A stretch of DNA of 28,304 bases from a virus (Duplodnaviria; Caudoviricetes), in the IMG/VR virus record IMGVR_UViG_3300008266_001072, positions 1 through 28,304 of that record; one strand, written 5' to 3'. Position numbers and translations under genes: made by a program. The notes below the pieces were generated by a model. The model was not told where the DNA came from. It was given only the letters and a program-made list of their open reading frames with translations, and did not search any database. Shown piece by piece: positions 6,001 to 24,171 of the stretch; position 1 is the stretch's first letter; each line of letters opens with the position of its first letter.

Positions 6001-6736
6001 CGGTAAGGGCGAGAGCGACCGCGACGCCGCGCGCTTCGCCGACAGCGTGATCCGCGAGACCCAGGGTACGATGGCCCCGGAGGATGTCTCGCGCTTCGAG
6101 ACGGGCCCGGCGTTCATCCGCGTGTTCACGCAGTTCGCTGGCTACTTCAACATGATGGCGAACCTGAACGCCACCGAGGTGCAGCTGGTCGCCCGTGACG
6201 CCGGTCTCAAGAAGGGCATGGGCCGCCTGTTCTACGTCTACCTGATGGGCTTCGCGGTCCCCGCCCTGATCGGCGACGCCATCGCCAAGGCGCTGCGCGG
6301 CGGCTGGGAAGACGAAGAGGGCGACGGCTATCTCGACGACCTGTTCGCCTGGTTCTTCTCGTCGCAGGCCAAGTTCGCTCTGGCCGCCGTGCCGGTCGTG
6401 GGCCAGGCCGCCAACGCCGCGCTGGGCGCGTTCACGAAGCTGCCCTACGACGACCGCATCTCGATGTCGCCCGCGGTGTCGGTGATCGAGAGCGGCCTGG
6501 GCACCCCGGCCGAGGTCTACCAGAGCTTGGTCGACGGCGAGAGCTTCAACCGCGCCGACACGCGCGACGCCCTGAACCTGCTCGGCGTCCTGACCGGCAC
6601 GCCCATCGGCGCGCTGGCCAAGCCCCTGGGCTACGGCGTCGGCGTCGCGCAAGGCGACATCGAGCCGACCGGCCCGCTGGACGCAGCGCGCGGCGTCATC
6701 ACCGGAGCGCCCTCGCCAGAGAGCAGGATGCAGTGA
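2..6736 (+). CDS. Giant polyvalent internal virion (ejection) protein, 5'-truncated by the window (>2240 aa)
   Basis: The frame is open from position 2, upstream of the 41 GTG, and the gene lies just before the tail spike as in APSE/BPP-1-like podoviruses. Motifs: GPKLGAFYANL..TMDRWW..ADIQAVLWY (HhH-glycosylase-like), ILTAENP..YDQDSVL (DUF3293-like), FYSALERAV..GVKKEEI and LDEVQS (polyvalent-protein domains), HETGH..HEKWARGFEAY (zincin-like), then a long helical C-terminus. Confidence 0.85.
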   Translation, partial: TQRQASVDQNLAKVQELHDTLGPAGMRETLLQELTVSDLKKKAAALGVEFSTSYKADVKLPLAAVIFGPKLGAFYANLMGADGYLTMDRWWSRTFNRYRGTLLQKPTAQGMARFRELLGQPNLSDDETLAAAVGPRNAYAARGYKNPSEIEAAANTLYKAAFENIEDKPFNASDRSFMLDTVAQARATLKRQGVEISVADIQAVLWYYEKRLYGELGARQTADVSYEEAAQRVVAEGTADVGALGPDLGGDWEAAAEQSDPGALAYNQGPVARSVDAYFSLENIGSLLEKDDWTILTAENPMGQQATPEENAKAQAKLVADLDALGVDYQPSIGRYGQIENSFVVVGITEKQARDLGAKYDQDSVLTRKGLIYQDGRVDAAVGLTVHDTRPEDYFTEVPGTGALFTVDLDFGEQTETFNQSDPFYSALERAVAGSPLTKAPAAQWMATLSKTPGVKKEEIEITGLNDWLDALADPDPLAQTFALEAGQVDAKGNVSKETVLAFVQSGGVRLEETVLGEPDPDADAEIDRLVEKSQQRVREEAMANPAYGATESRDGSGWTIYNRANYIEWSERFQTEAEAEAFAERANRLQLEERLAENEGYARRTYVEDARNRNPLGTRFTDYTIKGAVPGSQREFLVRLPVFKGNTFDSSEHHFEGINDIIGHFRASEHAAANGKKTMVLDEVQSTHHAMGEADGYAISADPATLAALQEAYNAALEAQRASWPPTVDAALRALGQHLERYRGNPGVEEATQRTLDDLNDRNNRNPSSAAIYAYNVLNAHSSLLDDEARVAMNAYSNARLRTTEAAGALLAAQGQGVADAPWKKSWDALLMKRAIRYAVDNGFEQIAWINGNQQNGGLTGGDGSWFYERNLVNVTNDIVKKFGTKVGKVDMIRNEPGSPRRDLMEFVAEVDARGENSGYGTLAEFQRPANKLGIQNGFEITPQLAEAARKGFALFQPNRGQIAFGQDITQTPSVISLLRAADLSTFIHETGHFFLEATADMANATDAPADIVADMATVLNWMRPGMTLADWNVMSLEERRPFHEKWARGFEAYHFGGRSPSLALRDVFRRFSAWLKNVYKSLTALDVELTDEVRQVMDRMLATEAEITEMEQARGLTPAFTNKPEFASDDEWEEYQRLAGDATAEAIEQLEQRSARDMRWASGAKDRYLRSLQREGEEQRKAVRAEVTAEVMAEPVNRARAFLRRGLGENGEPVEGAAKLDLATLKSLYGDEGTWTGLRRGGKYGEVSTDGLHPDAVASMFGYTNGQALIEDMVNGEDSADKIKGLTDQRMLERYGDLSDAQSIERAANEAVANEARAKFVAAEMAMADKAIGKKSILNSAAKEFAASVVNRLELKRLRPAQYLAAQGRAAKAAEKALKGDDLPGFATAKRNQLVNLHTGRAVQQAQKDVEKTMRLFTRIVSAKDDSISKSRNMDLVNAARAVLSSYGVGRVKNDPAGYMRALSQYDPTLYADIEPFVNGARGDAKPIVDLTYEQFTALRDTVNQLWALSRRTKQIEIDGKLMDREVVTTELGLRLDEIGIPAQAGVDRAPTDRDNRVRDLLGARAALRRVESWARGTDGANSGPFRKYIWNPISVAADAYRAESGVYIRRFRELLDGMRDELKPVDIKAPEIGYTFGGKSELFHALLHTGNGSNKSKLLLGRNWGKKNADGSLDDTRWQSFVDRLHTEGVLTQKDWTFVQAVWDLLEETKPGAQKAHRAIYGRYFDEVSADPVDTPFGQLRGGYVPAMTDGFLVQDAALRAEQEAIEGGDSAMFPAASNGFTKSRVEDYTRELALDLRLLPMHIDKVLKFTHLGPPVRDVARILKDRGFSKKLQAYDPTAQTDLLLPWLQRAAKQLVETPSKGRAGKAADRFFSAVRSRVGMQLMFANVVNTAQQVTGFSNVLLRVDAPILGDALWRYVRDPKGVAEAAASQSVFLANRMSSDIFEARQTIAQLTKLDPSKTDEAVAFLQRNAYFMQSAVQNVMDVISWTAAFNQASGKGESDRDAARFADSVIRETQGTMAPEDVSRFETGPAFIRVFTQFAGYFNMMANLNATEVQLVARDAGLKKGMGRLFYVYLMGFAVPALIGDAIAKALRGGWEDEEGDGYLDDLFAWFFSSQAKFALAAVPVVGQAANAALGAFTKLPYDDRISMSPAVSVIESGLGTPAEVYQSLVDGESFNRADTRDALNLLGVLTGTPIGALAKPLGYGVGVAQGDIEPTGPLDAARGVITGAPSPESRMQ

Positions 6737-6744
6737 CCTTTTCG

Positions 6745-6776
6745 GTATGTCTAAGGCCCGGCCTCGCCTCTAGGAT
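6745..6776 (+). promoter_or_regulatory. Putative phage late promoter GTATGTCT-N18-TAGGAT
   Basis: Intergenic, upstream of the tail spike. Same motif and spacing as GTATGGCT-N18-TAGTCT at 26881-26912, upstream of terS. Confidence 0.5.
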
Positions 6777-6803
6777 CGCGCCCGTCCTTCGGAGCTTTTA
6801 ATC

Positions 6804-9728
6804 TTGGCCATATCCTCGAGCACCCGCAAGGCCGGGCCGTTTCTCGGCAATGACGCGACGACGGTTTTCCCGTTCGCGTTCAAGGTCTTCACCGCCGCCG
6901 ATCTGCGCGTCGTCCGCACCAACGCCCTCGGGATCGAGAGCGACCTGGTGCTCGACACCGACTACACGGTCGCGCTCAACTCGAACCAAAACAACGATCC
7001 CGGCGGCACGGTGACGCGCACCACGGCTCTGCCGACCGGCGAGAGGCTGACAATCACCTCCGATGTTGAGGCGCTCCAACCCCTGGTGCTGACGAACAAC
7101 GGCGGCTTCTACCCAAGCGTCATCAACGACGCCTTCGACAAGATCACCATCATCGCGCAGCAGCTGATCGAACAGGTCGGCCGCTCGTTGAAGCTGCCGA
7201 TCAGCTCTTCCGCCAGCCCCACCCTCCCCGACCCTGTGGCCAATCAGCTCATCGCGTGGAACAGTGGCGCGACCGGGTTTACCAACTTCGACCCCACGGA
7301 CCTCGCCACCGTCGCCGCCTACGCCGACGCCTACATCGACTTGTTCACAGGCAACGGAACGCAGACCAACTTCACTTTGACCCACGGCCCGGCCGTGCTG
7401 GCCAACTTGTCTGTGTCGATCAGCGGCGTGGTCCAGGTCGGCGGCGAAGACTTTACTTGGGTCGGCACCACGCTCACCTTCGCGGTCGCGCCCCCGACCG
7501 GCACGCGCATCCAGGTGCGCTACACCCGCGCCATTCCGATCATAGACGTGGCCGCCGTGGAGCTGGCCCGCGATCTGGCGCAAGGCTACGCCTCCGACGC
7601 CGCCGGTGTCTCCGGCGTCAACGTGCCCTCCTACGCCTCGCGCGCATCTCTCGCCGGGGCCACGGTCGCGGCGGCCATCAAGCAAATCGCCACGCGGGGT
7701 TATGCCGCCGAGAGCGACGGTGGCGGCGCAACCTACGCCCGCACATCCTACGCGACGATTGTTTCCGCGGGCTACCCAGCGGCGTCCTACCAACGCTCGA
7801 CCGACCGCATTATGCCAGACGGCTCCACGGACGCCACCAACGGCGGTTATTGGTTGATCGTAGAGCCGGTCACGCGCCCCGAAATGTTCGGGCCAATGAC
7901 CACGACGACCGAGACGACGGCCGCGATGAAGGCTGCGGTCCACTTCATGGCGTTGACCAAGCGGCCCTTGGTTCTGCGCGGCTCGTACGACGTTAACGGA
8001 GAAATCGCCCCGAACATTACGATGGCAAACGCGGCCTACAATCTCCGGTTTGAAGGTGATGTGACGATCACCTACGACGCGTCGGCGGCGGCGACCGAAT
8101 ACTTCCTCGGCGTGTTCAGCACGGCGGCGACCAAGAACTACATCGGCCAGACAGGCGGCTCCCTGACCATCGTGGCCAACAGTAAAATACAGCGCGCCCT
8201 CTCGCTCGGTTGTGCCTCCGGCTCGTCGGCGATTGCCGGTGAGTGCCATGTGCGGGGTGTGCGGGTCACGAACGTCTACGGGCCCGCTGGGTCCAACGGG
8301 GTCGCCTACGCCATCGACATCTCGGGCCCATTCGCCCGGTACTCCCTGGACGATCTGGCGACGGACGGGGCGACGCGCGACGCCAGCCTGGACGCAACGG
8401 GCGATTGCAAAGGTCTGCGGGTTTCGCAGGCGCGCGTGGCTGTCGAGGTCACAAACTCGTCCTTCCTCAACGTCCAGAACGCCCTCCAAGATGCAGACGG
8501 AGCCGCGATCTTCGGCCCGCTGGGCGGAGGCGGGGTGCCCGTCGGGCCGCTCGCTCGCTTTGTCAACTGCACCTTCACAGGCAACAGGGGCCGCAGCTGC
8601 AAGACCCAGACGCGGCGTACGGAAGCCATCAACTGCGTGTTCGACCGGGGTGGCGTCGGAACAATCTCGGGCGGTCTGGAGATCGACGCGCAGTGCGGCG
8701 AGCTTTACGTTGAAAACTGCCGCATCAACATCGACGTGGCGGTTGGGGCCAGCTACTCCGTATTCGCTTCGCAGCTGACCAACCCTGACACCGCGCGCTT
8801 CACCACCATCCGCGACGTCGAGGTCCGCACGACGGTCGATTTCCCGAGGTTCTTCCTCACAGTCCTGGGTGCCAACTCGCCCAGCTCGACAGTCCTCATC
8901 GACAACGTCCGCGTCCTCGGCGTAGACGGTTTGGTGACGACGGCTCTGTCCCGGTCTTTTGTCGAGTTCCAGGCCGACCAAGTCAAGCTGGCGAGCACCA
9001 AACTCTCGATCACCGTGGCAAACTGTACTGTCCAGACCAACCTGATGCTGATCGGGTACACAGGCCACGACGGCACGGACCTTTCAGCAAAGCTCGCCAT
9101 CCACGCCTACAACAACAAAAACACGCTGACGGTTGTCAGCAACAACCGAGTGTTCAACCAGTTGTCGGGCACGACGATTGCCAAGCTGACCGACTATACG
9201 TTCCGCGAGAACGAAAACTTCTACACGCATTTCGTAAACTGGGACATCAGCTTCGCGACGATCAAGCCGGGCAACGATTTCGTGGTGGAGCTGGCGGGGG
9301 CGACGGTTACTAGCGGCCCGAGCGGTCTGCCGGTGACGGGCTACGCGCGCATCGTCACGGGCACGGGGGAGCAGACGTTATGGAACGAGCTGCCGCGCGA
9401 AATCATCGTGGAAAACTACGGCCGCCACTTCTACACGCAAACCGGCACTTGGGTCGAGCTGGCCGACCGCGCCATGCTGGAAGGCACCGCGACCTTCGAC
9501 GCCGCCTCTCTCGCCCTCGGTGGGTCTGGCGCGATCCAAACGCTGACCGTGACGGGCGCGGCTTTGGGCGACCTGACCCAAGCCTCTTTGTCCGTCGACC
9601 TGGCCGGTGTCGTCATCCACTCGTGGGTGAGCGCCGCCAACACCGTGAAGTATTTCGCCCACAACCTCGGGGGAGCCGACCCGGTTGATCTTGCGTCGGC
9701 CACCGCAAAAATACGGGTAGTCAAGTAG
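6804..9728 (+). CDS. Tail fiber/tail spike (receptor-binding protein), 974 aa
   Basis: TTG start with GGAG RBS. Podovirus N-terminal anchor (GPFLGNDATTVFPFAFKVF) and a second related unit (FTGNGTQTNFTL). Tailspike motif RGYAAESDGGGATY, a beta-helix-like middle (NCTF, NCVF, ENCRI), and a C-terminal TVTGAALGD..WVSAANTV domain. Confidence 0.9.
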   Translation: MAISSSTRKAGPFLGNDATTVFPFAFKVFTAADLRVVRTNALGIESDLVLDTDYTVALNSNQNNDPGGTVTRTTALPTGERLTITSDVEALQPLVLTNNGGFYPSVINDAFDKITIIAQQLIEQVGRSLKLPISSSASPTLPDPVANQLIAWNSGATGFTNFDPTDLATVAAYADAYIDLFTGNGTQTNFTLTHGPAVLANLSVSISGVVQVGGEDFTWVGTTLTFAVAPPTGTRIQVRYTRAIPIIDVAAVELARDLAQGYASDAAGVSGVNVPSYASRASLAGATVAAAIKQIATRGYAAESDGGGATYARTSYATIVSAGYPAASYQRSTDRIMPDGSTDATNGGYWLIVEPVTRPEMFGPMTTTTETTAAMKAAVHFMALTKRPLVLRGSYDVNGEIAPNITMANAAYNLRFEGDVTITYDASAAATEYFLGVFSTAATKNYIGQTGGSLTIVANSKIQRALSLGCASGSSAIAGECHVRGVRVTNVYGPAGSNGVAYAIDISGPFARYSLDDLATDGATRDASLDATGDCKGLRVSQARVAVEVTNSSFLNVQNALQDADGAAIFGPLGGGGVPVGPLARFVNCTFTGNRGRSCKTQTRRTEAINCVFDRGGVGTISGGLEIDAQCGELYVENCRINIDVAVGASYSVFASQLTNPDTARFTTIRDVEVRTTVDFPRFFLTVLGANSPSSTVLIDNVRVLGVDGLVTTALSRSFVEFQADQVKLASTKLSITVANCTVQTNLMLIGYTGHDGTDLSAKLAIHAYNNKNTLTVVSNNRVFNQLSGTTIAKLTDYTFRENENFYTHFVNWDISFATIKPGNDFVVELAGATVTSGPSGLPVTGYARIVTGTGEQTLWNELPREIIVENYGRHFYTQTGTWVELADRAMLEGTATFDAASLALGGSGAIQTLTVTGAALGDLTQASLSVDLAGVVIHSWVSAANTVKYFAHNLGGADPVDLASATAKIRVVK

Positions 9729-9962
9729 ATGACCCTCCACTCTGACGCCCGCAAACTGAACTGGGCCATGATCGGCGTCATACTGACGCTTGGCCTCCAG
9801 ATCGCCGTGCTCATCTTTTGGGGCGGCGGCATCAACCAGCGCGTGGCCAGCCTCGAGCGCATCGTCGGCCCTCTCGCCGACGGGACGCTGGCGCGCCTGG
9901 ACGAGCGCACCCAGGCCATGAAGGAACAGCTAGACCGGATCGAGAAGAAGGAGGGAGAATGA
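9729..9962 (+). CDS. Small membrane protein (1 TM plus coiled coil), holin/antiholin-like
   Basis: Hydrophobic WAMIGVILTLGLQIAVLIFWGG followed by a charged coiled tail. First gene of the lysis cassette; ATGA overlap with the next gene. Confidence 0.7.
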   Translation: MTLHSDARKLNWAMIGVILTLGLQIAVLIFWGGGINQRVASLERIVGPLADGTLARLDERTQAMKEQLDRIEKKEGE

Positions 9963-10204
9963 CCGACAACCAAGACCCCCTCCCCGAACCCTCGTTCCAC
10001 TGGCGTCGCTGGGTCACCATCGGCTACGTCGTGTCGACCACGATCCTGCTGGTCGGCATCATCTGGAAGCTCAGCGAGGGTGGGCCGCTGCGCGACGTGG
10101 CCCTGGCCCTGATCGGTTCGCAGGCCTTCTTCGCCCTCCTCTACATGGGCGGCGCGTCGGCCGCCGACCTCGCCCGCATCGTCGCAAGCTGGAAAAAGCC
10201 ATGA
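9959..10204 (+). CDS. Putative holin (2 TM), 81 aa
   Basis: Start re-called at ATG 9959 (MTDNQDPLPEPSFHWRRW..) with GGAGGGAG RBS. Two hydrophobic segments and a basic C-terminus; ATGA overlap with the endolysin. Confidence 0.75.
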   Translation: MTDNQDPLPEPSFHWRRWVTIGYVVSTTILLVGIIWKLSEGGPLRDVALALIGSQAFFALLYMGGASAADLARIVASWKKP

Positions 10205-10584
10205 GCAACGTCTTCGGTTCCCGGTCCCTCTCCCGCCTGAAAGGCGTTCACCCTGACCTGGTCAAGGTCGCCCACCTGGCCCTGTCCTACAGCCCCCTCG
10301 ACTTCATGATCACCGAGGGTCTGCGGACCCGCGCCCGGCAGCAGGAGCTGTTCAACGAAGGTGCGTCCAAGACCCTGAACAGCCGCCACATCACGGGCCA
10401 TGCGGTCGATGTCGCGGCCCTGGTCGGCGGCAAAGTGCGCTGGGACTGGCCCCTCTACCCGCGCATCGCGGAGGCTTTCAAGCGGGCGTCCAAGGAACTG
10501 AACGTGCCGATCATCTGGGGCGGCGACTGGAAGAGCCTGCGCGACGGTCCCCACTTCGAGCTGGACCGGAGGCGCTACCCATGA
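10201..10584 (+). CDS. Endolysin, peptidase M15 family (L-Ala-D-Glu peptidase type)
   Basis: SRLKGVHPDL, ITEGLRT..RQ, SRHITGHAVD, IIWGGDW, DGPHFEL: the canonical M15 zinc-peptidase motifs. Confidence 0.95.
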   Translation: MSNVFGSRSLSRLKGVHPDLVKVAHLALSYSPLDFMITEGLRTRARQQELFNEGASKTLNSRHITGHAVDVAALVGGKVRWDWPLYPRIAEAFKRASKELNVPIIWGGDWKSLRDGPHFELDRRRYP

Positions 10585-10892
10585 AGAACCCCTTCCCCCT
10601 CCGCACCTGGCTGATCCTGGCGGCCGTTGTCGTCGCCGTGCTGTCCCTGCTCTCGTGGCGCGGGGCATGCACCTCTGCGGACCAGGCCAAGGACCAAGCC
10701 ACCATCGCCGACGCGCGCACCGCGACGGCAAGCGAGACCTTTGAGATCACCGTCAACAACGCGGCGGCCGACGCCGCCACCCGGACCCAGGTACAGGAGG
10801 CCCAAGATGCGGTACGCCAAGCTGATCCTGCTGACCGCGAGCGCGTTGCTCGCTACCAGCTGTGCAAGCTCCAGGGTATCAGCGCCTGCTGA
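10581..10892 (+). CDS. Inner-membrane spanin (Rz-like)
   Basis: N-terminal TM followed by an Ala/Gln-rich helical periplasmic part with Cys near the C-terminus. Follows the endolysin and overlaps the lipoprotein gene. Confidence 0.75.
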   Translation: MKNPFPLRTWLILAAVVVAVLSLLSWRGACTSADQAKDQATIADARTATASETFEITVNNAAADAATRTQVQEAQDAVRQADPADRERVARYQLCKLQGISAC

Positions 10893-11130
10893 AGGCTGCT
10901 CGGTCTTCGGCGAGGCCATCTTGGGCAACGTCGTCGGCCACGCTACCCTCGCCGACAGCGGCGTGCCGCTGGACGACTGGCGCAACTACGCCCTCGACGA
11001 GACCGGCCGCCTCACGCAGTCGGAGCGCGACAAGAAGGACGGCCTCGCCGTCATCAAGCTGTGCGAGGCGCGAGACCAGCGTGCCTACCGTGCCGTCAAC
11101 GCCCCTTGGTATGCCTTCTGGGCCCGCTGA
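10807..11130 (+). CDS. Outer-membrane lipoprotein spanin (Rz1-like), 107 aa
   Basis: Start re-called at ATG 10807 with AGGAGG RBS. Signal peptide MRYAKLILLTASALLATS-C with a lipobox; overlaps the 3' end of the i-spanin in another frame. Confidence 0.8.
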   Translation: MRYAKLILLTASALLATSCASSRVSAPAEGCSVFGEAILGNVVGHATLADSGVPLDDWRNYALDETGRLTQSERDKKDGLAVIKLCEARDQRAYRAVNAPWYAFWAR

Positions 11131-11142
11131 AAGAACGAGACC

Positions 11143-11763
11143 ATGACCACCTTCGTCCCTCAGTCCCTGCTCGCCGAGGACTACCCGACCGCCGCTGAAG
11201 TCCTGGCGCTGGCCAACATCATCTGCCCCATCGGAACGGTGATCGACTACGCAGGCACCGCCGAACCGGCTGTCGTGCAGGGCGTGACGTGGGTCTTCCC
11301 TTACGGGCAAGCGGTCAGCCGCTCGACCTACGCCACGCTGTTTGCCCGCCTCGGGACCACTTACGGTTCGGGGGACAGCACGACGACCTTCAACCTGCCC
11401 GACTACCGGGGCCGACCAGGCGCTGGCCGGGACGACATGGGGGGCACCTCGGCCAACCGCCTGACCGCCGCGGTGTCGGGTATCGACGGTGACGTGCTCG
11501 GCGCTTCGGGCGGTGACGAGCGGCTGCACGCACACACGCACACGGTCACCGACCCGGGCCACACCCACCTAATCTCGCCGCCCTCGTCGAGCGACGTCAC
11601 CAGTTCGGGCTCGACCGCGACAGGTGCCGGCGGCGGTGAAACCGTCACGTCGTACAACAGCGGCTCGGCCACCACGGGTATCACCCTGGCCGACACGGGC
11701 GCAGGCGCGAGCCAGAACGTGCAGCCGACGATCATCGTGAACAAACTGATCCGGGTGCTCTAA
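11143..11763 (+). CDS. Phage tail collar domain protein
   Basis: PIGTVIDYAG..GQAVSRSTYATLFARLGTTYGSGD.TTFNLPDYRGR collar motif, HAHTH/HTH metal-binding repeats, C-terminal NVQPTIIVNKLIRV. Confidence 0.9.
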   Translation: MTTFVPQSLLAEDYPTAAEVLALANIICPIGTVIDYAGTAEPAVVQGVTWVFPYGQAVSRSTYATLFARLGTTYGSGDSTTTFNLPDYRGRPGAGRDDMGGTSANRLTAAVSGIDGDVLGASGGDERLHAHTHTVTDPGHTHLISPPSSSDVTSSGSTATGAGGGETVTSYNSGSATTGITLADTGAGASQNVQPTIIVNKLIRVL

Positions 11764-11766
11764 AGC

Positions 11767-11815
11767 AAAAAGCTCCGGCCGCTGGGAAGGACAAGTAACC
11801 AGCGGCCGGAGCTTT
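11767..11815. terminator. Intrinsic terminator between convergent late and replication arms
   Basis: Perfect 17-bp inverted repeat AAAGCTCCGGCCGCTGG (11769-11785) / CCAGCGGCCGGAGCTTT (11799-11815), with an A-tract on the left and a short T-tract on the right. Confidence 0.8.
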
Positions 11816-11909
11816 GGGCGTGACACGCGCTTGATCGCGCGCCACTCATCCCACGGCCCCGTCTCCCGGGAGGCTGTGAGGTCAGCGGCTAACCTAACAC
11901 AGATCGGTG

Positions 11910-12185
11910 CTAGATCAAACCCAAAGCTGACAGATAGAGATCGAGGATCGCCTCTTCCTCTTGGCGCTTGGCCTTGTCCATCTTGCTGATGCGAAGCACC
12001 TTGCGCAGGGTCTTCACGTCATAGCCCTCGCCCTTGGCCTCGGCGAAGACCTCCTTCATGTCGGCCATCACGGCGGCCTTGTCCTCGTCGAGACGCTCGA
12101 GGCGCTCAATGATGCCGCGCAGGCGGCCCTGCGCGTTGTCGTTCAGCACGTCGGGGCTGGCGTCGAAGTATGCGTCGTCGGTCAT
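11910..12185 (-). CDS. gapR: GapR-like nucleoid-associated protein (DUF2312), 91 aa
   Basis: Start re-called at ATG 12185 with GAGGA RBS. MTDDAYFDASPDVLNDNAQGRLRGIIERLERLDEDKAAVMADMKEVFAEAKGEGYDVKTLRKVLRISKMDKAKRQEEEAILDLYLSALG closely follows the Caulobacteraceae GapR pattern. Confidence 0.92.
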   Translation of the reverse strand: MTDDAYFDASPDVLNDNAQGRLRGIIERLERLDEDKAAVMADMKEVFAEAKGEGYDVKTLRKVLRISKMDKAKRQEEEAILDLYLSALGLI

Positions 12186-13597
12186 GTGTTCCTCTTCATG
12201 GCGTCGAGCATGATCTGCTGGACGCTCCTCTTGGTGTTGAGCCGCTCTAGTTTCAGTTCGTCCACAGTCCCCGCGGCGACAAGGTAGTGGACGAATACGC
12301 GCCGGTTCTTTCCGGCCTGCTGTTGGCGCATGGGGCCCACGCGCTCGATGATCTGGTCGTGCTCTTCGAGGTTCCAATCGAGCGAGAAGAACGCCAGCTC
12401 GTGGCTGTGCTCCTGCAGCCCGTCTACCCCGTGGCCCAGAGAGGCCGGGTGCGCAAACCAAACTCGGCCCTCGCCTGCCTTAGCGCGGCGCAAGCCAACT
12501 GGCGTCGACAGGTCGATGCCGTTGGGGAAGGTGCGCTGGAGCCGTTCGAGATCGTGCCGCCAGTTGTAGGCGACAAGCACGGGAGCACCGGCCGCTTCCT
12601 CGATGATGCTCCCCAGGGCCACCAGCTTGACGTCATGAACCTCATGCCACTTCCTTTCTTCCTCGTTGTCGTAAACCGCGCCCGACGCCAGCTGCCCGCA
12701 TTTGCCCGTGCGCGCCGCGGCGTTCGCCGCCTCGATGCCGACCGCCTTGATCTCGGTCCACATCTTGCGCTCCATCTCGCGGTACTGCGCCCGGGCCTTA
12801 GCTGGCAGCTCGACGTAAATCACGTTCTTGACGTGATCCTCCACGTCGACCTCGGTGGTCAGGCAGATGTCGCGGATCGCCGTCTCGATCTGCTCCTGCG
12901 CGAAGGGCAGCGGGTCGATGCTGAAGCCGTCGAACGACTTCTGGAACCACCGCTCCTTGAAGCTCTCGAACGTGCGGCCCAGACGCTGGCCAGCGTCGAG
13001 AAACCAGCCCTGGCCCCAGAGGTCTTGCAGCCCGTTCGGCGACGGCGTGCCCGTCAGGTTGATCCAGCGCGGCGTGCGGTGGGCGACGCGCCCTAGGGCC
13101 CTGGCCCTGGTCGAGCCGCCGCCCTGGTAATAGGTCTTGCCGGTGGTCGGGTGCGTGCGGAAGCCGCCACGGAAGCTCTTCAGCTTGGTGCTCTCGTCGG
13201 CGATCACCATGCCGAAGGGCCAGTCGCCGTCGAGCTTCTCGAGCAGCCACGGCAGGTTCTCGTAGTTGATCGTGGCCAGAGGCGAGCCGCCCCTTCGCAC
13301 ACGGCCGAGAGCTGCCAGCCGTTCGGCAGGCGTGCCGAGGATCGTGTCGACCTGCCACCCCGCGCAGAAGTCCCACTTCTTGACCTCGTCGGGCCAGGTG
13401 TGCTCGGCCACCCGCTTCGGCGCGATGACCAGCGCCGGTCGCGTGACCTCGCCGCAGAGGTGGAGCAGGTCGAGGGCGGCCAACGTGGCCGAGGTCTTGC
13501 CCGTGCCCATCCCCGCCCACTGACCGGCGCGCACGACCTCGCAGGCGTGGTCGATCATAGCCGGTTGCCAGGGCCTGGGGACGTACTCACGGGACAA
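12182..13597 (-). CDS. SNF2-family (SF2) helicase
   Basis: MGTGKT Walker A, LVIAP, INYE, VIADES, LTGTP, HPASLGHGVDGLQ, QIIERVG motifs, as in APSE-like phage helicases. Confidence 0.93.
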   Translation of the reverse strand: MSREYVPRPWQPAMIDHACEVVRAGQWAGMGTGKTSATLAALDLLHLCGEVTRPALVIAPKRVAEHTWPDEVKKWDFCAGWQVDTILGTPAERLAALGRVRRGGSPLATINYENLPWLLEKLDGDWPFGMVIADESTKLKSFRGGFRTHPTTGKTYYQGGGSTRARALGRVAHRTPRWINLTGTPSPNGLQDLWGQGWFLDAGQRLGRTFESFKERWFQKSFDGFSIDPLPFAQEQIETAIRDICLTTEVDVEDHVKNVIYVELPAKARAQYREMERKMWTEIKAVGIEAANAAARTGKCGQLASGAVYDNEEERKWHEVHDVKLVALGSIIEEAAGAPVLVAYNWRHDLERLQRTFPNGIDLSTPVGLRRAKAGEGRVWFAHPASLGHGVDGLQEHSHELAFFSLDWNLEEHDQIIERVGPMRQQQAGKNRRVFVHYLVAAGTVDELKLERLNTKRSVQQIMLDAMKRNT

Positions 13598-13841
13598 GGC
13601 GCAGGCCCCAAGGATCGGGGAACTGGTTATTCAGCACGCCTGGCTCACCTGCCCGGCGCAACGCGCCGATGACCGAGTTGCGGGTGCGGCCCAGTATCCC
13701 GGCGATGTACGCCGCGCTGCGACCGGCACGCCGGTGGCGTATGGCCCGGGCCAACTCTGCGGCGGTCCAGGTTTTGTGGGCGATGCTGCCGCCCGTCGGC
13801 TTCGGGGCGCGGCGCTCTCGGATTTGGTGGTAAGGGTTCAC
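13587..13841 (-). CDS. GcrA-like helix-turn-helix protein (N-terminal DNA-binding domain only), 84 aa
   Basis: WTAAELARAIRHRRAGRSAAYIAGILGRTRNSVIGALRR matches the GcrA N-terminal pattern WT..W..G.SASQIA..LG.VTRNAVIGKVHR. GTG start with GAGGAGAGG RBS. Confidence 0.75.
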   Translation of the reverse strand: MNPYHQIRERRAPKPTGGSIAHKTWTAAELARAIRHRRAGRSAAYIAGILGRTRNSVIGALRRAGEPGVLNNQFPDPWGLRLVP

Positions 13842-14149
13842 TGTGTCCTCTCCTCAATGTAATCGTCGACTGCCTCGATGCTGTCGAGGGTGAAGACCGC
13901 GCAGCCCAGGCTGCGCAGCTTGGCGTGCTCCCGCTCCTGATGCGGATCGGGCTTCTTGCCGGGGGCCTTCAGCTCGACGAAATGAACCTTCGCGGCGATG
14001 AGCGGAACGCCGTACTGCTGGGGGCCTTGAGGCCAGATCACCAACCGATCCGGCGCGCCGCGGTGCCCCGGCCAGACCATCTTCCTGACCAGCGCCCCGG
14101 CGGCTGTCGCCTTCTTGCGCAGGTGCATCTCGACTGTGCTCTCACGCAT
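13838..14149 (-). CDS. VRR-NUC domain nuclease (Holliday junction resolvase-like)
   Basis: Start re-called at ATG 14149 (TGATG overlap). MRESTVE..GAPDRLV..FVELKAPGKKP..Q PD-(D/E)XK motif. Confidence 0.92.
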   Translation of the reverse strand: MRESTVEMHLRKKATAAGALVRKMVWPGHRGAPDRLVIWPQGPQQYGVPLIAAKVHFVELKAPGKKPDPHQEREHAKLRSLGCAVFTLDSIEAVDDYIEERTQ

Positions 14150-14679
14150 CAGATGTGCTTCCATGTTCGCCGGGTGCGGATGCCCCAGACGTGCGCAGGG
14201 TGGACGTTGTAAAGCGTGGCCACCGTGATGTGGTCGAGTTTTAGGGCGCGAATGTTACGCACGTCGTTCTCGGTCAGCTTCGCCATGCCGTGGCGCGAAC
14301 CTCTCGGTCTGACGTCGTTCACGATGCTATCTGCCGCATTGTCCTTGTGCGTTCCGTAGCAGAGATTGGCCAGTCGGTTATCGCCCTTCCGGTCGTTCAA
14401 GTGGCGCGCGACCTGCCCGTCAGGTTTTGGGCCGACGAAGGTAGCGAGCACCAGATCGTGGATCGTATGCTGCTGGCGTTTGCCTTCTCCCGCCAAGGTG
14501 ACGACGTGGTAGCCGTTGCCCTTGACGGCTGGTTGGAGAATGCGCCCGCGCCGGATCGCCTCCCCGAGCCCGCCCTTCCCGGCAGCGACGTATCGGTCCT
14601 TCGAGCGCACTCGGCCACGGTCGCTGACCTCGTAATAGTCACCTTCCCAGCCTTCGATCTTGCGCCACTGTTCTCTCAT
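14149..14679 (-). CDS. NUMOD4-HNH homing endonuclease, free-standing
   Basis: EQWRKIEGWEG.YEVSDRGRVRS (NUMOD4), HDLVLATFVGP..RHLNDRKGDNRLANLCYGT..N (HNH), and a C-terminal AKLTENDVRNIR HTH-like tail. Confidence 0.93.
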   Translation of the reverse strand: MREQWRKIEGWEGDYYEVSDRGRVRSKDRYVAAGKGGLGEAIRRGRILQPAVKGNGYHVVTLAGEGKRQQHTIHDLVLATFVGPKPDGQVARHLNDRKGDNRLANLCYGTHKDNAADSIVNDVRPRGSRHGMAKLTENDVRNIRALKLDHITVATLYNVHPAHVWGIRTRRTWKHI

Positions 14680-16585
14680 TTTTGGTATCTAGCGCCTTCC
14701 CAACCAGCCGCTGCCAGAGGCAGGCCTTGTGCCCACGGGGGGACCGTGGTCATTATTGAGGAGAGACGATCAACCGTAAACTGGTCACTGTCAATAGGCT
14801 CCGTGACCAGCTCGTCGTGACAAGTTAAAATAATAGGGAACCCGGCCGCCTCGGCCTCGGCCATGTTGTGCGCCAGCACGTCGCGAGCCCCGCCCTGCGT
14901 GGCGTTCTCGATCAGCTTGCCGCCGTAGGTGTGCAGCCGCTCCCATTTCCGCAACGGCCAGAGGGGAGGCGCATGCGCAGCCAGCTGCCGTCGCGTTGGA
15001 AGACGAGCTTGCCACCGGCCGCCTCGACCCGCAGGCCCGGTTGCTCTGCGGCGCGGATCGCGGCGCGCTCGGTCTCGTACCACAGCTCGACGATGTGCTT
15101 GTTCTTCTTGCGCCAGGCCTTCACGATCTCGAGCGCCCGGGCGTCGGACATCTCCAGCCCGTAGATGCGGGCCATCGCCTGGAACGCGCCGACGGCACCT
15201 TGGTAACCGCAGGCCAGCTCGGGCACCTTGCCCTGCGCCTGGCGTTGGTCGGCCGTGACCTGGTCGATAGGTATGTTCAGCACCTCGGACGCGCCGACGT
15301 AGTAGAGGTCGGGGCCGGTGCCTGCGTCGTAGTCCCTGAACGCGCGGAGCTTCCACTCTTCGCCTGCCAGCCAGGCCAGGAACCGGCCTTCGATGTTGGC
15401 CAGGTCGGAGGACACCATCTTCTTGCCGGGCCCGACGGTCAGCGCGCCGCGCGTGCAGTTGGCGGCGGTGTTCATGACGTTGTCGTAGACCAGGTCCGCG
15501 CAGTCCGCGAGGAAGGCTTCGATGGCGTCGAGGATGGCCTGTTGCTTCAGCGTCGGGCGCATCAGGTTCTGGGGCTGGAAGAGGCGGCCAGCCCAGCGGC
15601 CGGTGCGCGCAGCGCCACAGAACTGCAGCGTGCCGCGCAGCCGCCCGTCGCTCGACGTCCCCCGCAGGAGCGTCTTGTACTTGGCGGTCGACGACACCGT
15701 GGCCATGAGCCTGATGCGGAGCAGGTGTTTAACCGGCTCTGGCAGGTTCTCGTCGGCCAGTCGCCGCTCGAGCGTGCCCTTCTGCATGTCGGGCAGGTCG
15801 ACGCCGAACTCGCCGAGCAGGTACTTCAGGAAGGCGTCGCGCTGGGTGGTGCTCTCGAGCCCCTGCCCCGTCTCCGGGTCGAAGCCGGTCAGCTCCTGGG
15901 TCTTCGCCTTCAGCCCCTTCTTGGCCAGGTCCGTGGCGCGCACGGCGGCCTCTGCCAGGGCCAGGTCGACGGCCACGCCCCTGTCGTTGATCTTCTGGTC
16001 GAGCACCCACAGGTCACGCTCGCGCTGGTTCCCGGGGTAGTTCCACTTGGGCAGGCGCTTGCGCACCTCGCGCATCGACAGGATGTCGGACCCCGCGTAG
16101 TCGAGGAACCGCTGCCACTCAACGGGGTGGGTCTCGCGCGTCGCGCGCCTGACCTTGGAACTCTGGGGCCTGGGTTTGCAGAAGAGCTGGACCAGCTGCT
16201 TGCCCGCCTTGTCCTTGGCAAGGTCGGTCGGCACGCCCAACACCGAGCACAGCTTGTCGAGGGAGCCGGGAAGGCCGTGGGCGAGGGCCTGGACCATCGT
16301 GTCCACGACCTTCTCGACCGGCATCTCGTAGCCCCATGCGTGGCGCAGGACGGTGCGGTCGAAGGCAGAGTTCTGCCAGACCTGCTCGTCGGCGGCGTCG
16401 GCGGCGGCCAGGGCCACCTTGACCTTGTCCTCCCAGCCGGGCCTGGTGCAGTCGATGACCTCGACTGGGCCTTCGTCAATAGCCCAGGCCAGGACCGTGA
16501 TCTCGACCTTCTCTGCGTAGCGGTGCAGGCCGTGGGCGAGGGGCGTTTCGCAGTAGGTTTCCGTATCGCCAAAAAAGGTGGTCAA
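14676..16585 (-). CDS. Family A DNA polymerase (APSE-type), interrupted by an apparent deletion/frameshift at about 14952
   Basis: TTG start at 16585 (TTGA overlap, GAGGGA RBS). The first frame has the Exo motifs DTETY, NSAFDR and YAGSD, then GAARTGRWAG, motif A DLANIEGR and motif B RQAQGKVPELACGY. RKWERLHTYGGKLIENATQ and motif C TCHDE lie in a different frame that ends at 14676. Confidence 0.9.
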
Positions 16586-17144
16586 CGGTTCTTCCCTCTG
16601 CGGCTGCGCAGCCGCGTCCAGGTCCAGCCGAAGGCTCCCTTGACCGTGCCGTCGGCCGCGTTCTTCACGGCGTTGCGCCACACGTCACGGCTCTCGCCGG
16701 TCATGCAACGCGCCGCCTCGGAGATGGTCATGAAGTAGAGCACGTCCTCACCACGGCGGCCTTCGACGTAGGCGCTGGCGGCGGGGATGTCGATGTAATA
16801 GCTGCGGGGCACCACGATGTCGGGGGTCTTGGACTGCGGGCCCCGGGGCTTCGGTTCGCTGTCGGGGCGATCCTCGGAGCCTTCGATCCGGTAGCGGTTG
16901 TCCTTCTGGGCCAGCGCCAGTCGCAGCGCCTCGGCGCGGGCCAGCCTGTCGGGGTGCGGATCGCCCGTGGCCTCGGGAGGGAGGGGCGTGCCCTGTCCGA
17001 GTGTCGGGAGCGGGGGGCGGGGTTGTGCGACGCGCGGTCGAACACCGGCACCTCGCCCTGGAAGGAGGGCTCCGTGCCCTGGCTGATTTCGTTGATGTGA
17101 CGCTCCTTGAAAAAGGAGCGCGGGGCAGAGGGTTTCTGTTGCAC
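16582..17144 (-). CDS. Hypothetical DNA-binding protein with NUMOD1/IENR1-like C-terminus, apparently frameshifted near 17012-17017
   Basis: GTG 17144 follows the AGAAGGACAAGAGAC leader. The GC3-rich frame reads to ..DRASHNPAP; the -1 frame then continues PLPTLGQGTPLPPEATGDPHPDRLARAEALRLAL..YFMTISEAAR..GAFGWTW to TGA 16582. A G6 run lies at the switch. Confidence 0.55.
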
Positions 17145-17200
17145 GTCTCTTGTCCTTCTAGCAGATCGGGGGTGGCCCGGGAGGACCACCCCTTCTCCTG

Positions 17201-17404
17201 TTAGACCCCGGCCTGGGACGGGTTGTCAAGCCGCTTGGCGAGGGCTTCGGCGTAGTTGGCGGCCAGTCCCACGACTTGGTGGAACGTGAGACGGCTGTTG
17301 ATCGTGTCGTTGGCGAGGATGCCCGCCAGCGCGTGGCCCGCGAGGTAGCCGACGTTGTCTCTGTGCTGGCGCTCCAGGCACTCTTCGGAGTGTTCGCTTT
17401 CCAT
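17201..17404 (-). CDS. Hypothetical phage protein, 67 aa
   Basis: TGATG coupling to the SSB stop. RD..AGHALAGILA..A.NYAEAL pattern typical of small phage proteins. Confidence 0.7.
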   Translation of the reverse strand: MESEHSEECLERQHRDNVGYLAGHALAGILANDTINSRLTFHQVVGLAANYAEALAKRLDNPSQAGV

Positions 17405-17970
17405 CAGGCGAGGTCTCCCGCGTCAACACCGTCGGCGATGTCGTCGAAGTCGTCGGCCGAGGCCGGTGCGCCGCCCGAGAAGGCGTCGCCGTCGCTGTGG
17501 AACTGCAGGCCCTTGAGCTGGGCACGGATGCCGCGGCCCCACTTGTTGTCCTGCGCCCAGAACTCGACCTGGATGATCGCCTTGCAGCCCGAGTAGGGGC
17601 GGCCGTCGGACTGAACCAGGGGGGTCTTGTCCCGGTCGATCAGCAGCGGGCGGGTCGACGACTTGGCCGTGACGTAGAACATGTCCTCGAAGCCGTCGTA
17701 GGCACCGCCGTCCTTGTTCTTGTAGGGCTCCTTGACGAAGCCGACCTCCGGCTTCTTGCCGGTCTTGACCAGGTTGTCGAAGACCTGTTGGGCCTTGGCC
17801 CCCCACTTCTCCTTGGCCACGGCCAGCATGGCCTCGTCGAGCTTCTTAACCGTGGCCTTGTCGGCCGGGTCGACGATGAACTTGCCGTTGAACGCCGGGT
17901 CGCCGCCGTCGATGGCCGTGGCCTCGAAGACGTTGATGAAGGCGCAGCGGGCGAGGAAGTTGACTTTCAT
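17404..17970 (-). CDS. ssDNA-binding protein (DUF2815, APSE/T7 gp2.5-like)
   Basis: MKVNFLARCAFINVFEA..YDGF..YSGC..GIRAQLKGLQF..DGDAFSGG..ADDFDD acidic tail. The frame stays open upstream to ATG 18132. Confidence 0.9.
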   Translation of the reverse strand: MKVNFLARCAFINVFEATAIDGGDPAFNGKFIVDPADKATVKKLDEAMLAVAKEKWGAKAQQVFDNLVKTGKKPEVGFVKEPYKNKDGGAYDGFEDMFYVTAKSSTRPLLIDRDKTPLVQSDGRPYSGCKAIIQVEFWAQDNKWGRGIRAQLKGLQFHSDGDAFSGGAPASADDFDDIADGVDAGDLA

Positions 17971-18132
17971 ATTCGTATCTCTCTTCAGCATTTCAGGATG
18001 GGATTTAGCGATGGTCTCGTAGGCACGATCTATAGCTATGCGCCGGATCAAAGACCCAGGCAAGCCGGTATTTGCCGCCTCTTTCAGAAGAGCCTCGGCC
18101 GCGGCGGGCAGCTTTCCAATCAGCCGAGACAT
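17971..18132 (-). CDS. 54-codon segment fused in frame upstream of SSB (small ORF or N-terminal extension)
   Basis: ATG 18132 follows the stop at 18137 directly, and there is no stop before ATG 17970. Codons are visibly more AT-rich than the SSB body. Confidence 0.5.
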
Positions 18133-18136
18133 GGGG

Positions 18137-18232
18137 TTAGCGCACCGGCCAGAGGGTGTCGACGATGTCGAGCATCAGCTTGTAGCAGCCGTAGAGGGCC
18201 AGTGCGGTGAGGACGAAGTCGAACCAGGTCAC
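18137..18232 (-). CDS. Small membrane peptide, 31 aa ([31 protein letters not shown])
   Basis: GTGA overlap with the DUF2800 stop, GAGGAG RBS, and it fills the gap in the operon. Confidence 0.6.
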
Positions 18233-19470
18233 GCCAGCGGCTCCTCGATGAGGGCAAAGTCGTCGGCCGTAGCCGCGACGGTGAGAGCGGGGCGTTTGTC
18301 GGAGGCCGGGGCCACCGAGGGTTTGCCCTGGCTCTGCGCGTATTGCTCCTGCAGCTTCTTCCACTGGCGAGGGCCAATGGTGCCTGCCTTGGCGAGCTTC
18401 TCGGCCGTGGTGGGGGAGATGAGTTTCAGCTCGAACATCTCCTCGACCTTGAGCCGCATGGAGCGCAGCTGCAGCTCTGCCTCTTCGGGGTTGATCCACT
18501 TCCTGTGGCCGCGTTTGCCTTCGACCAGCTTGAAGCCCGGCACCTCGACACCCGCGACGAGGCGGCGCTCGGTCTCGGCGCGGACGGCGAGGCAGAACAT
18601 CTCCATCAGGTCGACCTTGGCCAGCGCCTCCGCGAGCACGTCGCCCGGCACTTCGGCCAGGGCGGCGGGTAGGGTCTCGGTGGTCAGGTCGACGAAGTCG
18701 TCGGCGCTGGCGGCGGTGGTCACCACGGCGGTGGTCTCGGCGGCCAGCGCCGGGCAGACGGCCTTGGCCTTGCACCACTGGCACTGGCTCGCGCCCGGGT
18801 TCAGCTCGGGCTTGCGGCCACCGTTGAGCTGGTAGACGGCATGTGCTGCTCCGATCCGCGCCTCGGAGGCGAACTCGAGCAGGTCTTCGACGTTGATCTC
18901 GTAGGTGCTCGGCTCCATCGAGACCTTGGGCTGGTAGATCGTCAGCACCACGCGCTTGATGTCGTAGGCCAGCGAGGCCAGGTCCAGAGCGCCCAGGCCG
19001 TAGAGCATGAGCTGTTTGTTGTCCTCGGCGGCGACGTAGTTGCGGCCGTATTTGAGGTCGATGACGTGGAGGGTGGTGCCGACGATCACGATGGTGTCGG
19101 CTGTGCCGTAGGCGTCGGGCTGGGCGAGGATGGGGGACAGGTCGACGACCTGCTCCACCATCAGCTCGCCGCCCAGGCCACGGACGTAGTCGCAGTAGCC
19201 CTGGACGCCGAGGACCATGTCCTCGTCGACCTCGAACTTGCGCCCGCTCTCCTCGATCTCGATCAGCCGACCGGCGTAGGCAGAGGCGTCCTGGCCAGAG
19301 GTCAGGCACCATTCCATCAGCTGGTGGGCGGCGGTGCCCTCGTCGGCGTAGACAGAGGAGGTGTCGGGGAAGGGCTCTTCCATCTTGAGGGAGCCGGGGC
19401 AGGCCATCCAGCGGTGAGCGCCGGACGGCGACAGGCGGGCGTGGGCCTTGCTGGCGGTGGTGTCGTTCAT
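18229..19470 (-). CDS. DUF2800 Cas4-like/PD-(D/E)XK exonuclease
   Basis: [61 protein letters not shown]. Confidence 0.93.
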
Positions 19471-19691
19471 GTTTCGATGTCTCCTCTTTGCGCTTTCATA
19501 ACCAGCAATCTGCGCAGCACGCGCTTGCGCTCGCCCCGGGTGAGCAGAAGGTCCGCCTCCCCCACCCGCACCGCCTTGACGTTGCGGGGGAGGGAGGGGT
19601 CTCGTTTGGCGGGCTGGGGCACGCCCGGCACCACCAGGTCAGCGCCGAAGATCAGCGCGCCGCCCGAAGGGCTGGACATGCCCCTACGCAT
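19467..19691 (-). CDS. Hypothetical protein, 74 aa
   Basis: TGATG coupling at 19691 and ATGA coupling at 19470 fill the operon exactly. Confidence 0.6.
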
Positions 19692-20083
19692 CAGCCCAGC
19701 ACCTCGGCGGCACGAGCCAGGAAGGGGCCCCACTGTTCCTCGGTCAGATCGCCACCGACCTTGGCGTCGAACTCACCGAGCAGCTCGACGGCGGCGGCGC
19801 GGCCCTTCTCCTGGGAGACCTTCAGCACTGCGGCCTTGACCTGGGTGTAGTCGACCGCGGGGGCCCCCAGCTCGCTCGGCACGGCCTCGTCGACCGGCGG
19901 CTTGCCTTTGAGGATGGCCTTCACCTGGGCCTCGACCGGGGTGGCCTCCACCAGAGCCTTCACGGCAGGCTTGACGATGTCGCGCTTCAGCTCTTGGTTG
20001 ACCGAGCGGATCGACATGGCGGCGGCCAGGTTGTTGATGGCCTCGGCCAGCTCGGGGCATTTGATGTCGAGAGTGATGTTCAC
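19691..20083 (-). CDS. Conserved phage protein of the kind usually found upstream of DUF2800, 130 aa
   Basis: MNITLDI..ELAEAINNLA, an Ala/Pro linker, then V..AVLKVSQEKGRAAAVELLGEF.A..L.EEQW. Operon-coupled. Confidence 0.75.
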   Translation of the reverse strand: MNITLDIKCPELAEAINNLAAAMSIRSVNQELKRDIVKPAVKALVEATPVEAQVKAILKGKPPVDEAVPSELGAPAVDYTQVKAAVLKVSQEKGRAAAVELLGEFDAKVGGDLTEEQWGPFLARAAEVLG

Positions 20084-20277
20084 AGCATGGTTTCCTTTTC
20101 AAAGTCGTTGTAGACGTTCTGGGGTTGCTCGTCGGCGTCGAAGGGATAGACGTCGTCGAGGCGCTCGGCCAGTTCGAGGATGAGGTCGCCGTCAGGCTTC
20201 ATCAAGTTGAGGTGGGCGAGACGGGCGAACTCGATCAGCCCGCGCGTCGTCATGCCCTTGAGCTGAACGCGGGTCAT
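20080..20277 (-). CDS. Hypothetical protein, 65 aa
   Basis: Start re-called at ATG 20277 (MTRVQLKGMTT..). Coupled overlaps at both ends; GC3-rich. Confidence 0.65.
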   Translation of the reverse strand: MTRVQLKGMTTRGLIEFARLAHLNLMKPDGDLILELAERLDDVYPFDADEQPQNVYNDFEKETML

Positions 20278-20462
20278 GCGAGCCACCAGACGGCCAGGGC
20301 GACCTCGAGGCACACGCCCGCCACCAGGATGGCGAAGAGGACGCCCGAGAAGAGTTCGGTGCTCAAGTTCCTGTCGGAGGCGAAGCGATACCACTCGCCC
20401 ATAGACAGGAGGTTGGCCAGGAAGACCACGAGCATGGCCAGCGTGAAGAGAGCGTCGCGCAT
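20274..20462 (-). CDS. Small 2-TM membrane protein, 62 aa
   Basis: Start re-called at ATG 20462 (MRDALFTLAMLVVFLANLL..). TGATG coupling; two hydrophobic segments. Confidence 0.65.
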   Translation of the reverse strand: MRDALFTLAMLVVFLANLLSMGEWYRFASDRNLSTELFSGVLFAILVAGVCLEVALAVWWLA

Positions 20463-20806
20463 CAGAGCATGTCCCCTTCTGCGTTGATGAAGTGGACCAC
20501 GCCACCGGCCAGCTGGATCATGACGCAGGCCTGGCGGGCCCGACGGCAGGCTTCGGCCGCGATCTGCACCAGCACCCGACCGTCGCCAGCGCCGGTGGTC
20601 ATGGCGATCTCGTACTTCAGGCTGTCGTCGTTGACGATCTCGCCGTCCCCGTTGCGCCAAGCGCCGGTCACGAGGGTCTGGGTGTAGCCGCCGAAGTTGT
20701 CGAGGATATCCCCGCGCAGGGCGGCGTGGGTTTCGGTGAGGCGGTTGCCGTCGTTGTCCCGCAGCGGCAGGATCAGGAAGGCAATGCGCTTGGAGAAGTC
20801 GGTCAT
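20462..20806 (-). CDS. Candidate SAM lyase (SAMase)/DUF3574-like protein, 114 aa
   Basis: FGGYTQTLVTGAW..EIVNDDSLKYEI..LVQIAAEACRRARQACVMI resembles the G.T..G.W/Y..E..A..ACxxxxQxCV pattern of T3-type SAM lyases. AAGGA RBS. Confidence 0.55.
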   Translation of the reverse strand: MTDFSKRIAFLILPLRDNDGNRLTETHAALRGDILDNFGGYTQTLVTGAWRNGDGEIVNDDSLKYEIAMTTGAGDGRVLVQIAAEACRRARQACVMIQLAGGVVHFINAEGDML

Positions 20807-20817
20807 GGTCTCTGTCC

Positions 20818-20985
20818 TTATTGGGTGCAGATGCCCGCGGAGATCAGGCTGGCTGCGGTTCGGCCGTAGTGGCCCTGGAGGGACCAGGCGGCCCCTGTGT
20901 CGATCAGGTTCTGGAAGAAGTCAACCATCTGGTCCTCTTCCATCTCGCCTTGCTCGTAGGAGATGATGTCGTCGATGCTGGGCAT
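20818..20985 (-). CDS. Conserved small phage protein, 55 aa (MPSIDDIISYEQGEMEEDQMVDFFQNLIDTGAAWSLQGHYGRTAASLISAGICTQ)
   Basis: Not in the ORF track; translated by hand. TGATG coupling at 20985, and the FQxLIDxGxAWxLQGHYGRxA motif is a recurrent phage pattern. Confidence 0.75.
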   Translation of the reverse strand: MPSIDDIISYEQGEMEEDQMVDFFQNLIDTGAAWSLQGHYGRTAASLISAGICTQ

Positions 20986-21194
20986 CAGCCGAACTCCACG
21001 GGGTTCAGCTCGGCACCTGCGGCGGCGCGCTGGTAGCCCAAGAGGACCAGCAGGCGGTCGAGGCCGCGGCCGCGAATATACCCGCCCTCCCAGCCCTTCG
21101 GGCCGTTGAAAGTGTAGCGGACTTCGTACAGCCCGTTGTCGAGGTTGCGGGCCGGGAACTCGCGCCCCTCAAACGTGACGGTGGTGGTAGCCAT
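20985..21194 (-). CDS. Hypothetical early protein, 69 aa
   Basis: First gene after the leftward promoter; AGAAGGACAAGAGAC-ATG leader. Confidence 0.7.
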   Translation of the reverse strand: MATTTVTFEGREFPARNLDNGLYEVRYTFNGPKGWEGGYIRGRGLDRLLVLLGYQRAAAGAELNPVEFG

Positions 21195-23941: not shown

Positions 23942-23945
23942 GACA

Positions 23946-24170: not shown

Positions 24171-24171
24171 C

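Follow-up and report, generated by a model that had tools for sequence, protein, structure and literature searches.

The DNA analysed here (the window) is a whole virus record of 28,304 nt (28.3 kb; completeness ~63%), in which a replication operon runs leftward on the minus strand. The upstream part of this operon (14149..19470) is of the BPP-1/APSE/Jess A type, with NUMOD4-HNH, a family A DNA polymerase, an Enc34 SSB and a DUF2800 exonuclease, and is followed on the same strand by genes encoding a VRR-NUC nuclease (13838..14164; phrog_93, E 1.3e-27), an 84-aa protein (13587..13841), a SNF2-type helicase (12182..13597; phrog_62, E 3e-120) and, as the last gene, a full-length homologue of GapR (DUF2312; 11910..12185; PF10073, E 8.5e-31). 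The 84-aa protein was assigned as a GcrA DNA-binding-domain-only protein from profile, AlphaFold2 model and residue alignment. Its start is overlapped by the stop codon of the VRR-NUC gene adjoining its 5' side, and the junction sequences show the helicase gene overlapping both the GcrA-domain and the GapR genes. A similar operon order, with GapR after the helicase, is found in the Caulobacter phage Jess A. Where the tail-collar and GapR genes converge, an inverted repeat flanked by A/T runs was read from the sequence (11767..11817); it is likely to be a bidirectional terminator, and was not among the predictions of a terminator scan of the window. No GANTC occurs anywhere in the record (1..28304), in which several 6-bp palindromes are also depleted.

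Since the best cultured matches of the GapR homologue are Brevundimonas phages (80–82%), the host is likely a member of the Caulobacteraceae. No tyrosine integrase was found in any of the five records searched, including a 90%-complete near-identical one, and GTDB genomes yielded one weak match to the domain-gene family among 16 candidates; a virulent lifestyle appears likely for this phage. The DNA polymerase gene carries a 67-base deletion with a frame change compared to three relatives (14912-15356, minus strand, near 14952). The 80-base junction was not found in four near-identical records, two loci of which may not cover the position, and the break in this record probably stems from misassembly or from a defective variant.

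The 84-aa ORF has a GAGGAG ribosome-binding site, overlaps its neighbours on both sides, and comprises a 23-aa leader, a three-helix bundle (residues 25–63) and a 21-aa tail. The first-pass annotation described a GcrA-type recognition helix and an early end without a C-terminal domain, and this description was confirmed throughout: the helix is present, the protein ends 21 residues past R63, and the sigma70-interacting domain (SID) is absent from the ORF. A SID profile gave no match in the window or in records G001 (90% complete) and G002 (96%). As an unbiased check on conservation of the helix, loci were chosen by the helicase alone. In 15 of 79 such loci, among them four copies of the window's phage, the position ahead of the helicase is taken by the domain, and T/S-R-N-x-V-I-G-A-x-x-R is kept by all 12 slot proteins that were translated. 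The slot is occupied in 15 of the 15 close loci that cover it, and the gene thus has a fixed place in the replication operon. Compared with six relatives, dN/dS was 0.05–0.40 for the recognition helix and 0.42–0.95 for the whole gene, the helix being under the stronger constraint.

Relationship of the 84-aa protein to GcrA

Taken alone, the 84-aa sequence is ambiguous. It scored 13.4 bits (E 0.1) against the Pfam GcrA profile (PF07750), below the cut-off of 26.9, and slightly better against HTH_23 (E 0.032), as single family sequences often do. Among 28 family members only four passed the PF07750 cut-off, namely three tandem slot-mates (38.6–42.4) and P0023 (29.8). The assignment therefore comes from family profiles and fold. 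A profile of 21 relatives matched the GcrA DNA-binding domain with E 6.7e-7 and full GcrA with E 6.8e-6, the next non-GcrA chain following at E 0.22 and the Myb chain 2llk at E 1.5. The AlphaFold2 model (mean pLDDT 72, core ~91; helices 27–38, 43–50 and 54–63) had GcrA structures as its top three Foldseek hits (rmsd 0.9–1.3 Å over 43 columns) with Myb ranked lower, none of the matches reaching E <= 0.001. Both comparisons point to the GcrA N-terminal domain, as had been proposed, and a generic Myb/HTH domain is not the better match. Furthermore, PF07750 was found in six of seven longer homologues, the nearest homologues outside the family carry it, and the outer matches of a wider profile were mostly GcrA proteins among the 120 of 203 matches listed; the sole named cluster in the Atlas was Myb-like (0.87).

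In GcrA, the methyl pocket is reported to consist of R33, N34, I37 and G38, with R42 as base reader (PMC5887438). W25, R54, N55, I58, G59 and R63 of the ORF align with GcrA W3, R33, N34, I37, G38 and R42, and the pocket and base reader, five of the six base-reading residues, are all kept while the rest of the sequence has diverged to ~50%. The protein shares the three-helix domain of Caulobacter GcrA (PF07750; PDB 5yiu, 5yiv, 7ye1) at 40% identity over 43 columns, including S20, A21 and T32 in addition to the residues above. Unlike that protein, it has the N-terminal leader, lacks the linker and SID, and has changed backbone contacts at K39>A (A60), H41>R (R62), S22>A (A44) and W15>R (R37). 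K39A reportedly impaired GcrA function in vivo (PMC5887438); full-length GcrA-like proteins vary at this position too, 28 of 43 having K. Judged from profiles and modelled fold, the ORF is a predicted GcrA-derived DNA-binding domain devoid of the sigma70-binding domain, the absence of which means that it cannot act as a sigma cofactor.

The domain-only family proved widespread. We collected 83 SID-less and 44 full-length proteins, the former in ~80 sequence clusters and two lineages. In a quick tree over 49 columns, 62 lineage-1 domains formed one clade (SH-aLRT 92) and 11 lineage-2 domains another (SH-aLRT 94), both among full-length GcrA-like proteins, in a topology that leaves their mutual relation unresolved. 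These features bear on whether a full-length phage GcrA gene could be decaying here into a functionless relic. The dN/dS of 0.95 against the closest relative, which rests on 9 differences, and the variable leader and tail lengths across the family would agree with decay, but the 62 lineage-1 domains are distinct, with intact frames and a conserved helix, and with the slot filled in every close locus covering it a relic is highly improbable.

R42, which lies outside the selection pattern, was kept in 78 of 79 SID-less proteins, the K39 position was Ala in 57 of 79 and H41 was variable; such tallies are partly circular, rows having been picked by the recognition-helix pattern and five rows lacking it dropped. 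The losses at K39 and H41 would suit a domain that has drifted from GcrA specificity and works on phage DNA as a small regulator or replication accessory, the absence of GANTC being incidental. The same reading draws on the reported resemblance of the GcrA domain fold to sigma region 4 (PMC5887438), on the translational coupling of the gene within the replication operon, on some relatives in which an added first HTH repeat has a different recognition helix, and on the independence of GANTC loss from the gene (see below). It is harder to reconcile with base-reading residues surviving in an otherwise diverged sequence, R42 above all, and no target site on phage DNA has been identified; we consider it a genuine though unlikely alternative.

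Of the 83 SID-less proteins, 51, from both lineages, carry an RxFS(W/E)-type motif within their final 16 residues, which none of the 44 full-length ones has. Lineage-2 proteins (G021, G022, G024) combine this tail motif with an intact K39, and in G022 the gene lies between what read as terminase genes in the ORF translations. The C-terminal motif is missing from the window's copy, whose subfamily apparently lost it through deletion, and from tandem forms; some slot relatives are such tandems of two HTH repeats without a tail, and these pass the Pfam GcrA cut-off. Conceivably, the domain would find methylated host DNA and its short tail recruit a partner, either a phage nuclease or helicase or one supplied by the host, with degradation of host DNA as one possible outcome. 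The distribution of the motif and the location of the gene between nuclease and helicase genes fit an adaptor of this kind, which is nonetheless improbable given the motif-less window copy and tandems and the terminase neighbours in lineage 2; the recurrence of the motif on SID-less GcrA domains and on an unrelated HTH protein (the set being L132, 4668-5471, minus strand; L220, L224, L226; many P00xx proteins) could also be counted in its favour.

Several other arrangements were observed among the relatives. In six loci (L009-L012, L015, L016) a 64-aa Cys-rich ORF (phrog_15216) directly follows the GcrA-domain gene and an 80-aa ORF lies upstream beside it, both absent in the window, and in P0019 the domain is fused to the Cys-rich end. 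Tandem DNA-binding forms also occur in P0024, P0026 and P0030, and the GcrA homologue of phage Bajun (L266; 30556-31188 of ON529858) consists of two tandem DNA-binding repeats and a SID.

GANTC sites in the window and across phages

The reported absence of GANTC from the window held up on counting: no site was found, where 125.7 ± 10.2 were expected from 100 dinucleotide shuffles and 29 from a maximal-order Markov model. At the site density of phage RW or DMCA, the probability of zero sites is < 1e-8. The 90%-complete near-identical record also has 0 GANTC, in agreement with the earlier proposal that the phage genome offers no cognate site. Other depleted words (seen/expected) were GGCGCC (0/25), CGATCG (0/20), AGCGCT (0/13), GAGCTC (0/13) and GCCGGC (1/25), and a lack of 6-bp palindromes typically signals that restriction sites are being avoided. 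Consistent with pressure from restriction, a Lar-like restriction-alleviation protein (phrog_599, E 2e-7) is encoded at 22759-23265 on the plus strand. A 114-aa ORF (20462-20806, minus strand) has a weak match to S-adenosylmethionine (SAM) lyase (PF23780, E 0.003); its relatives score E 5e-5 to 1e-4, all below cut-off, and a comparison with solved structures gave no match. If truly a SAM lyase, it would starve host methyltransferases, CcrM included. Within a 2231-aa virion protein, positions 881-1150 (plus strand) encode a DUF3293 domain that also scores 26.3 bits against a SAM-lyase family (cut-off 28).

The phage panels compared here were assembled by manual choice or around an anchor gene, and do not represent random sampling. 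Domain-only proteins with an intact pocket occur in GANTC-poor phages of both lineages (G001 with 0 sites, G002 1, G021 7, G022 4, G024 4), the lineage-2 genomes having 4–7 sites in 27–47 kb. The suggestion that the gene and GANTC loss go together finds partial support in these two lineages, but fails for 13 GANTC-poor phages (0–8 sites), complete or nearly so, that gave no match to GcrA. The cultured ones are Jess A (1 site in 45.0 kb), BL94 (0 in 46.1), Percy (0 in 45.0) and Lullwater (3 in 44.6), together with Cd1, AA and ERS (no site over 40 kb counted per genome), and the metagenomic ones, 92–100% complete, are G023 (0 in 50.1 kb), G019 (2), G025 (4), G017 (5), G020 (7) and G012 (8). Likewise, among the helicase loci, 24 GANTC-poor fragments are without the domain as against 15 with it. 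Sites are kept in all remaining cultured phages that were counted, namely RW (59 in 62.4 kb), DMCA (34 in 50) and PBC5 (57 in 57.4), and, per 60 kb sampled, in RBC57 (76), Domovoi (122), Bajun (142), 7-7-1 (149) and Cr30 (281).

Four SID-less proteins of GANTC-keeping phages (RW, Domovoi, G029, G030) have altered pocket residues. Several phages with SID-less domains keep 0.7–2 GANTC per kb, and intact-pocket SID-less domains occur in GANTC-keeping G031 (24 sites in 23.6 kb), L201 (33 in 15.7 kb), L213 (6 in 7.3 kb), L202 and L216. Two fragments with full-length GcrA (L192, L200) have 0 GANTC. The association leading from the gene to GANTC loss is partial, one-way and seen in two lineages. These counts fit a permissive reading in which GANTC loss is mostly not tied to the gene, the sites having been lost first and for another cause, likely restriction or CcrM avoidance. 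Host genomes are themselves reported to be more than 2-fold depleted of GANTC (PMC8919816).

GANTC loss extends more widely, as a trait of small lytic Caulobacter and Brevundimonas phages. All seven of the small lytic podophages counted for these hosts (Percy, ERS, Cd1, AA, Lullwater, Jess A and BL94; L092, L271-L283, L302-L303), of T7-like and Jessavirus types and without a GcrA gene, have 0–3 sites where 50–106 are expected, while RW, DMCA, jumbo and other phages keep 0.7–4.7 per kb. This indicates a strong and so far unexplained GANTC-directed pressure in these hosts, which may matter as much as the domain family itself.

GapR and possible roles of the lone domain

The GapR gene lies two genes downstream of the GcrA-domain gene in the same operon, as first described, with overlapping stop and start codons, and its product matches the full PF10073 profile (1–72 of 72). 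No difference was found from other phage GapR homologues (PF10073; Erythrobacter phage R34L1, PMC12185513). GapR is reported to encircle overtwisted DNA and to stimulate type II topoisomerases (PMC12185513). Its proposed part in a takeover module was not supported: GapR matches occur in 128 of 50,697 phage records, Jess A has GapR after the helicase and no GcrA gene, and in lineage 2 GapR lies 14–34 kb from the domain gene on the opposite strand. GapR accompanies many alphaproteobacterial phages rather than the domain gene specifically, and is likely a separate replication aid.

The biochemistry of GcrA constrains what a lone domain could do. GcrA without its C-terminal domain showed no promoter localisation in vivo (PMC4647560, section 7), and the same source gives a Kd of ~270–500 nM for DNA and < 15 nM for RNA polymerase, a 1.4–1.7-fold gain in DNA affinity by methylation, and partial inhibition of transcription in vitro at high GcrA levels (PMC4647560). 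Methylation-dependent GcrA recruitment, both in vitro and in vivo, has also been reported (PMC3667746). Because of the weak DNA affinity, the small methylation gain and the failure to localise to promoters, the lone domain would be active at high dose only, and would compete poorly with the complex of GcrA and polymerase. GcrA is moreover described as dispensable in Caulobacter (PMC3885167), which means that a block of GcrA would not necessarily stop the host.

The first-pass annotation had gone further, proposing a dedicated takeover module in which the domain displaces GcrA at promoters as a dominant negative, GapR assists, and GANTC was removed so that self could be told from non-self. GcrA homology, the intact pocket, the missing SID and the absence of phage sites all stood; the GANTC link and the GapR role found no support, and dominant-negative promoter occupancy is doubtful in view of the deletion mutant. 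Each of the 15 domain-holding loci chosen by the helicase is GANTC-poor and GapR-bearing, and the three traits are combined in two lineages, as such a module would lead one to expect. GcrA, however, arrives at promoters via RNA polymerase rather than DNA (PMC4647560), the 13 phages and 24 helicase-locus fragments without the domain are also GANTC-poor, and with GapR remote from the gene in lineage 2 we hold a dedicated module to be quite improbable.

Our preferred reading, to which we give a probability of roughly 0.45, is that the domain may be a weak, dose-dependent roadblock on host DNA during lytic growth, likely binding YGANTCG-type sites that are absent from the phage. If specificity is retained, the domain would bind such sites, in methylated form or otherwise; the target must then be non-phage DNA, because GANTC is part of the GcrA consensus and is missing from the phage, and the domain would act on host DNA only. 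Given expression high enough to bind, it could weakly impede host transcription, and it is from these steps that we infer any effect on the host. Earlier GANTC loss would have permitted the gene, the gene not being the cause of the loss. Most likely, then, the domain serves virulent Caulobacteraceae phages as a putative accessory binder of host DNA, one that the earlier loss of sites permitted. Besides the biochemistry above, weak points of the roadblock reading include Ala at K39, in light of the impairment of GcrA by K39A, the changed H41 and S22, the intact-pocket SID-less domains of GANTC-keeping phages and the loss of the RxFS motif from the window's copy. A bolder and rather unlikely version is that virulent Caulobacteraceae phages, already purged of GANTC on two occasions, recruited the GcrA methyl-reader, in which a short RxFS(W/E) tail or a second HTH replaced the SID, and which as an epigenetic reader encoded by the phage would mark or silence host DNA as non-self via the CcrM marks of the host.

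Phage copies of this host cell-cycle reader are known from phiCbK (gp222; PMC3556154), DMCA (gp084), RBC57 and Bajun. In contrast to the domain-only protein of the site-free window, GcrA is full-length in DMCA, RBC57 and Bajun, and their genomes keep 0.7–2.4 GANTC per kb. The cultured Caulobacter phage RW encodes a GcrA domain devoid of a SID (gp061, annotated as hypothetical) close to the corresponding helicase gene, but with N34>C and I37>L, a separate SID-like gp049 and 59 GANTC; its SID-like and domain-only proteins (L094, 18371-18934 and 29325-29642) form a natural split. Jessavirus (Jess A, BL94; PMC11053796) shares the replication operon with GapR after the helicase and has 0–1 GANTC per genome, but has no GcrA-like gene, the protein in its slot before the helicase being without a match to the domain profile.

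GcrA homologues in phages have been on record since 2012, together with speculation on a role in host control (PMC3556154, PMC7987155, PMC9437464, in the portions available), and phage methyltransferases mimicking CcrM have been published (PMC5537653). The accessible text describing the Jessavirus and RW genomes makes no mention of GcrA (PMC11053796). In the open literature, subscription papers and supplements aside, we found no description of a domain-only GcrA family, of GANTC-free Caulobacter podophages or of GANTC-directed pressure. A domain-only family with an intact methyl pocket, here in a site-free genome, would offer a clean test of whether host cell-cycle methylation can serve a phage as its mark of non-self.
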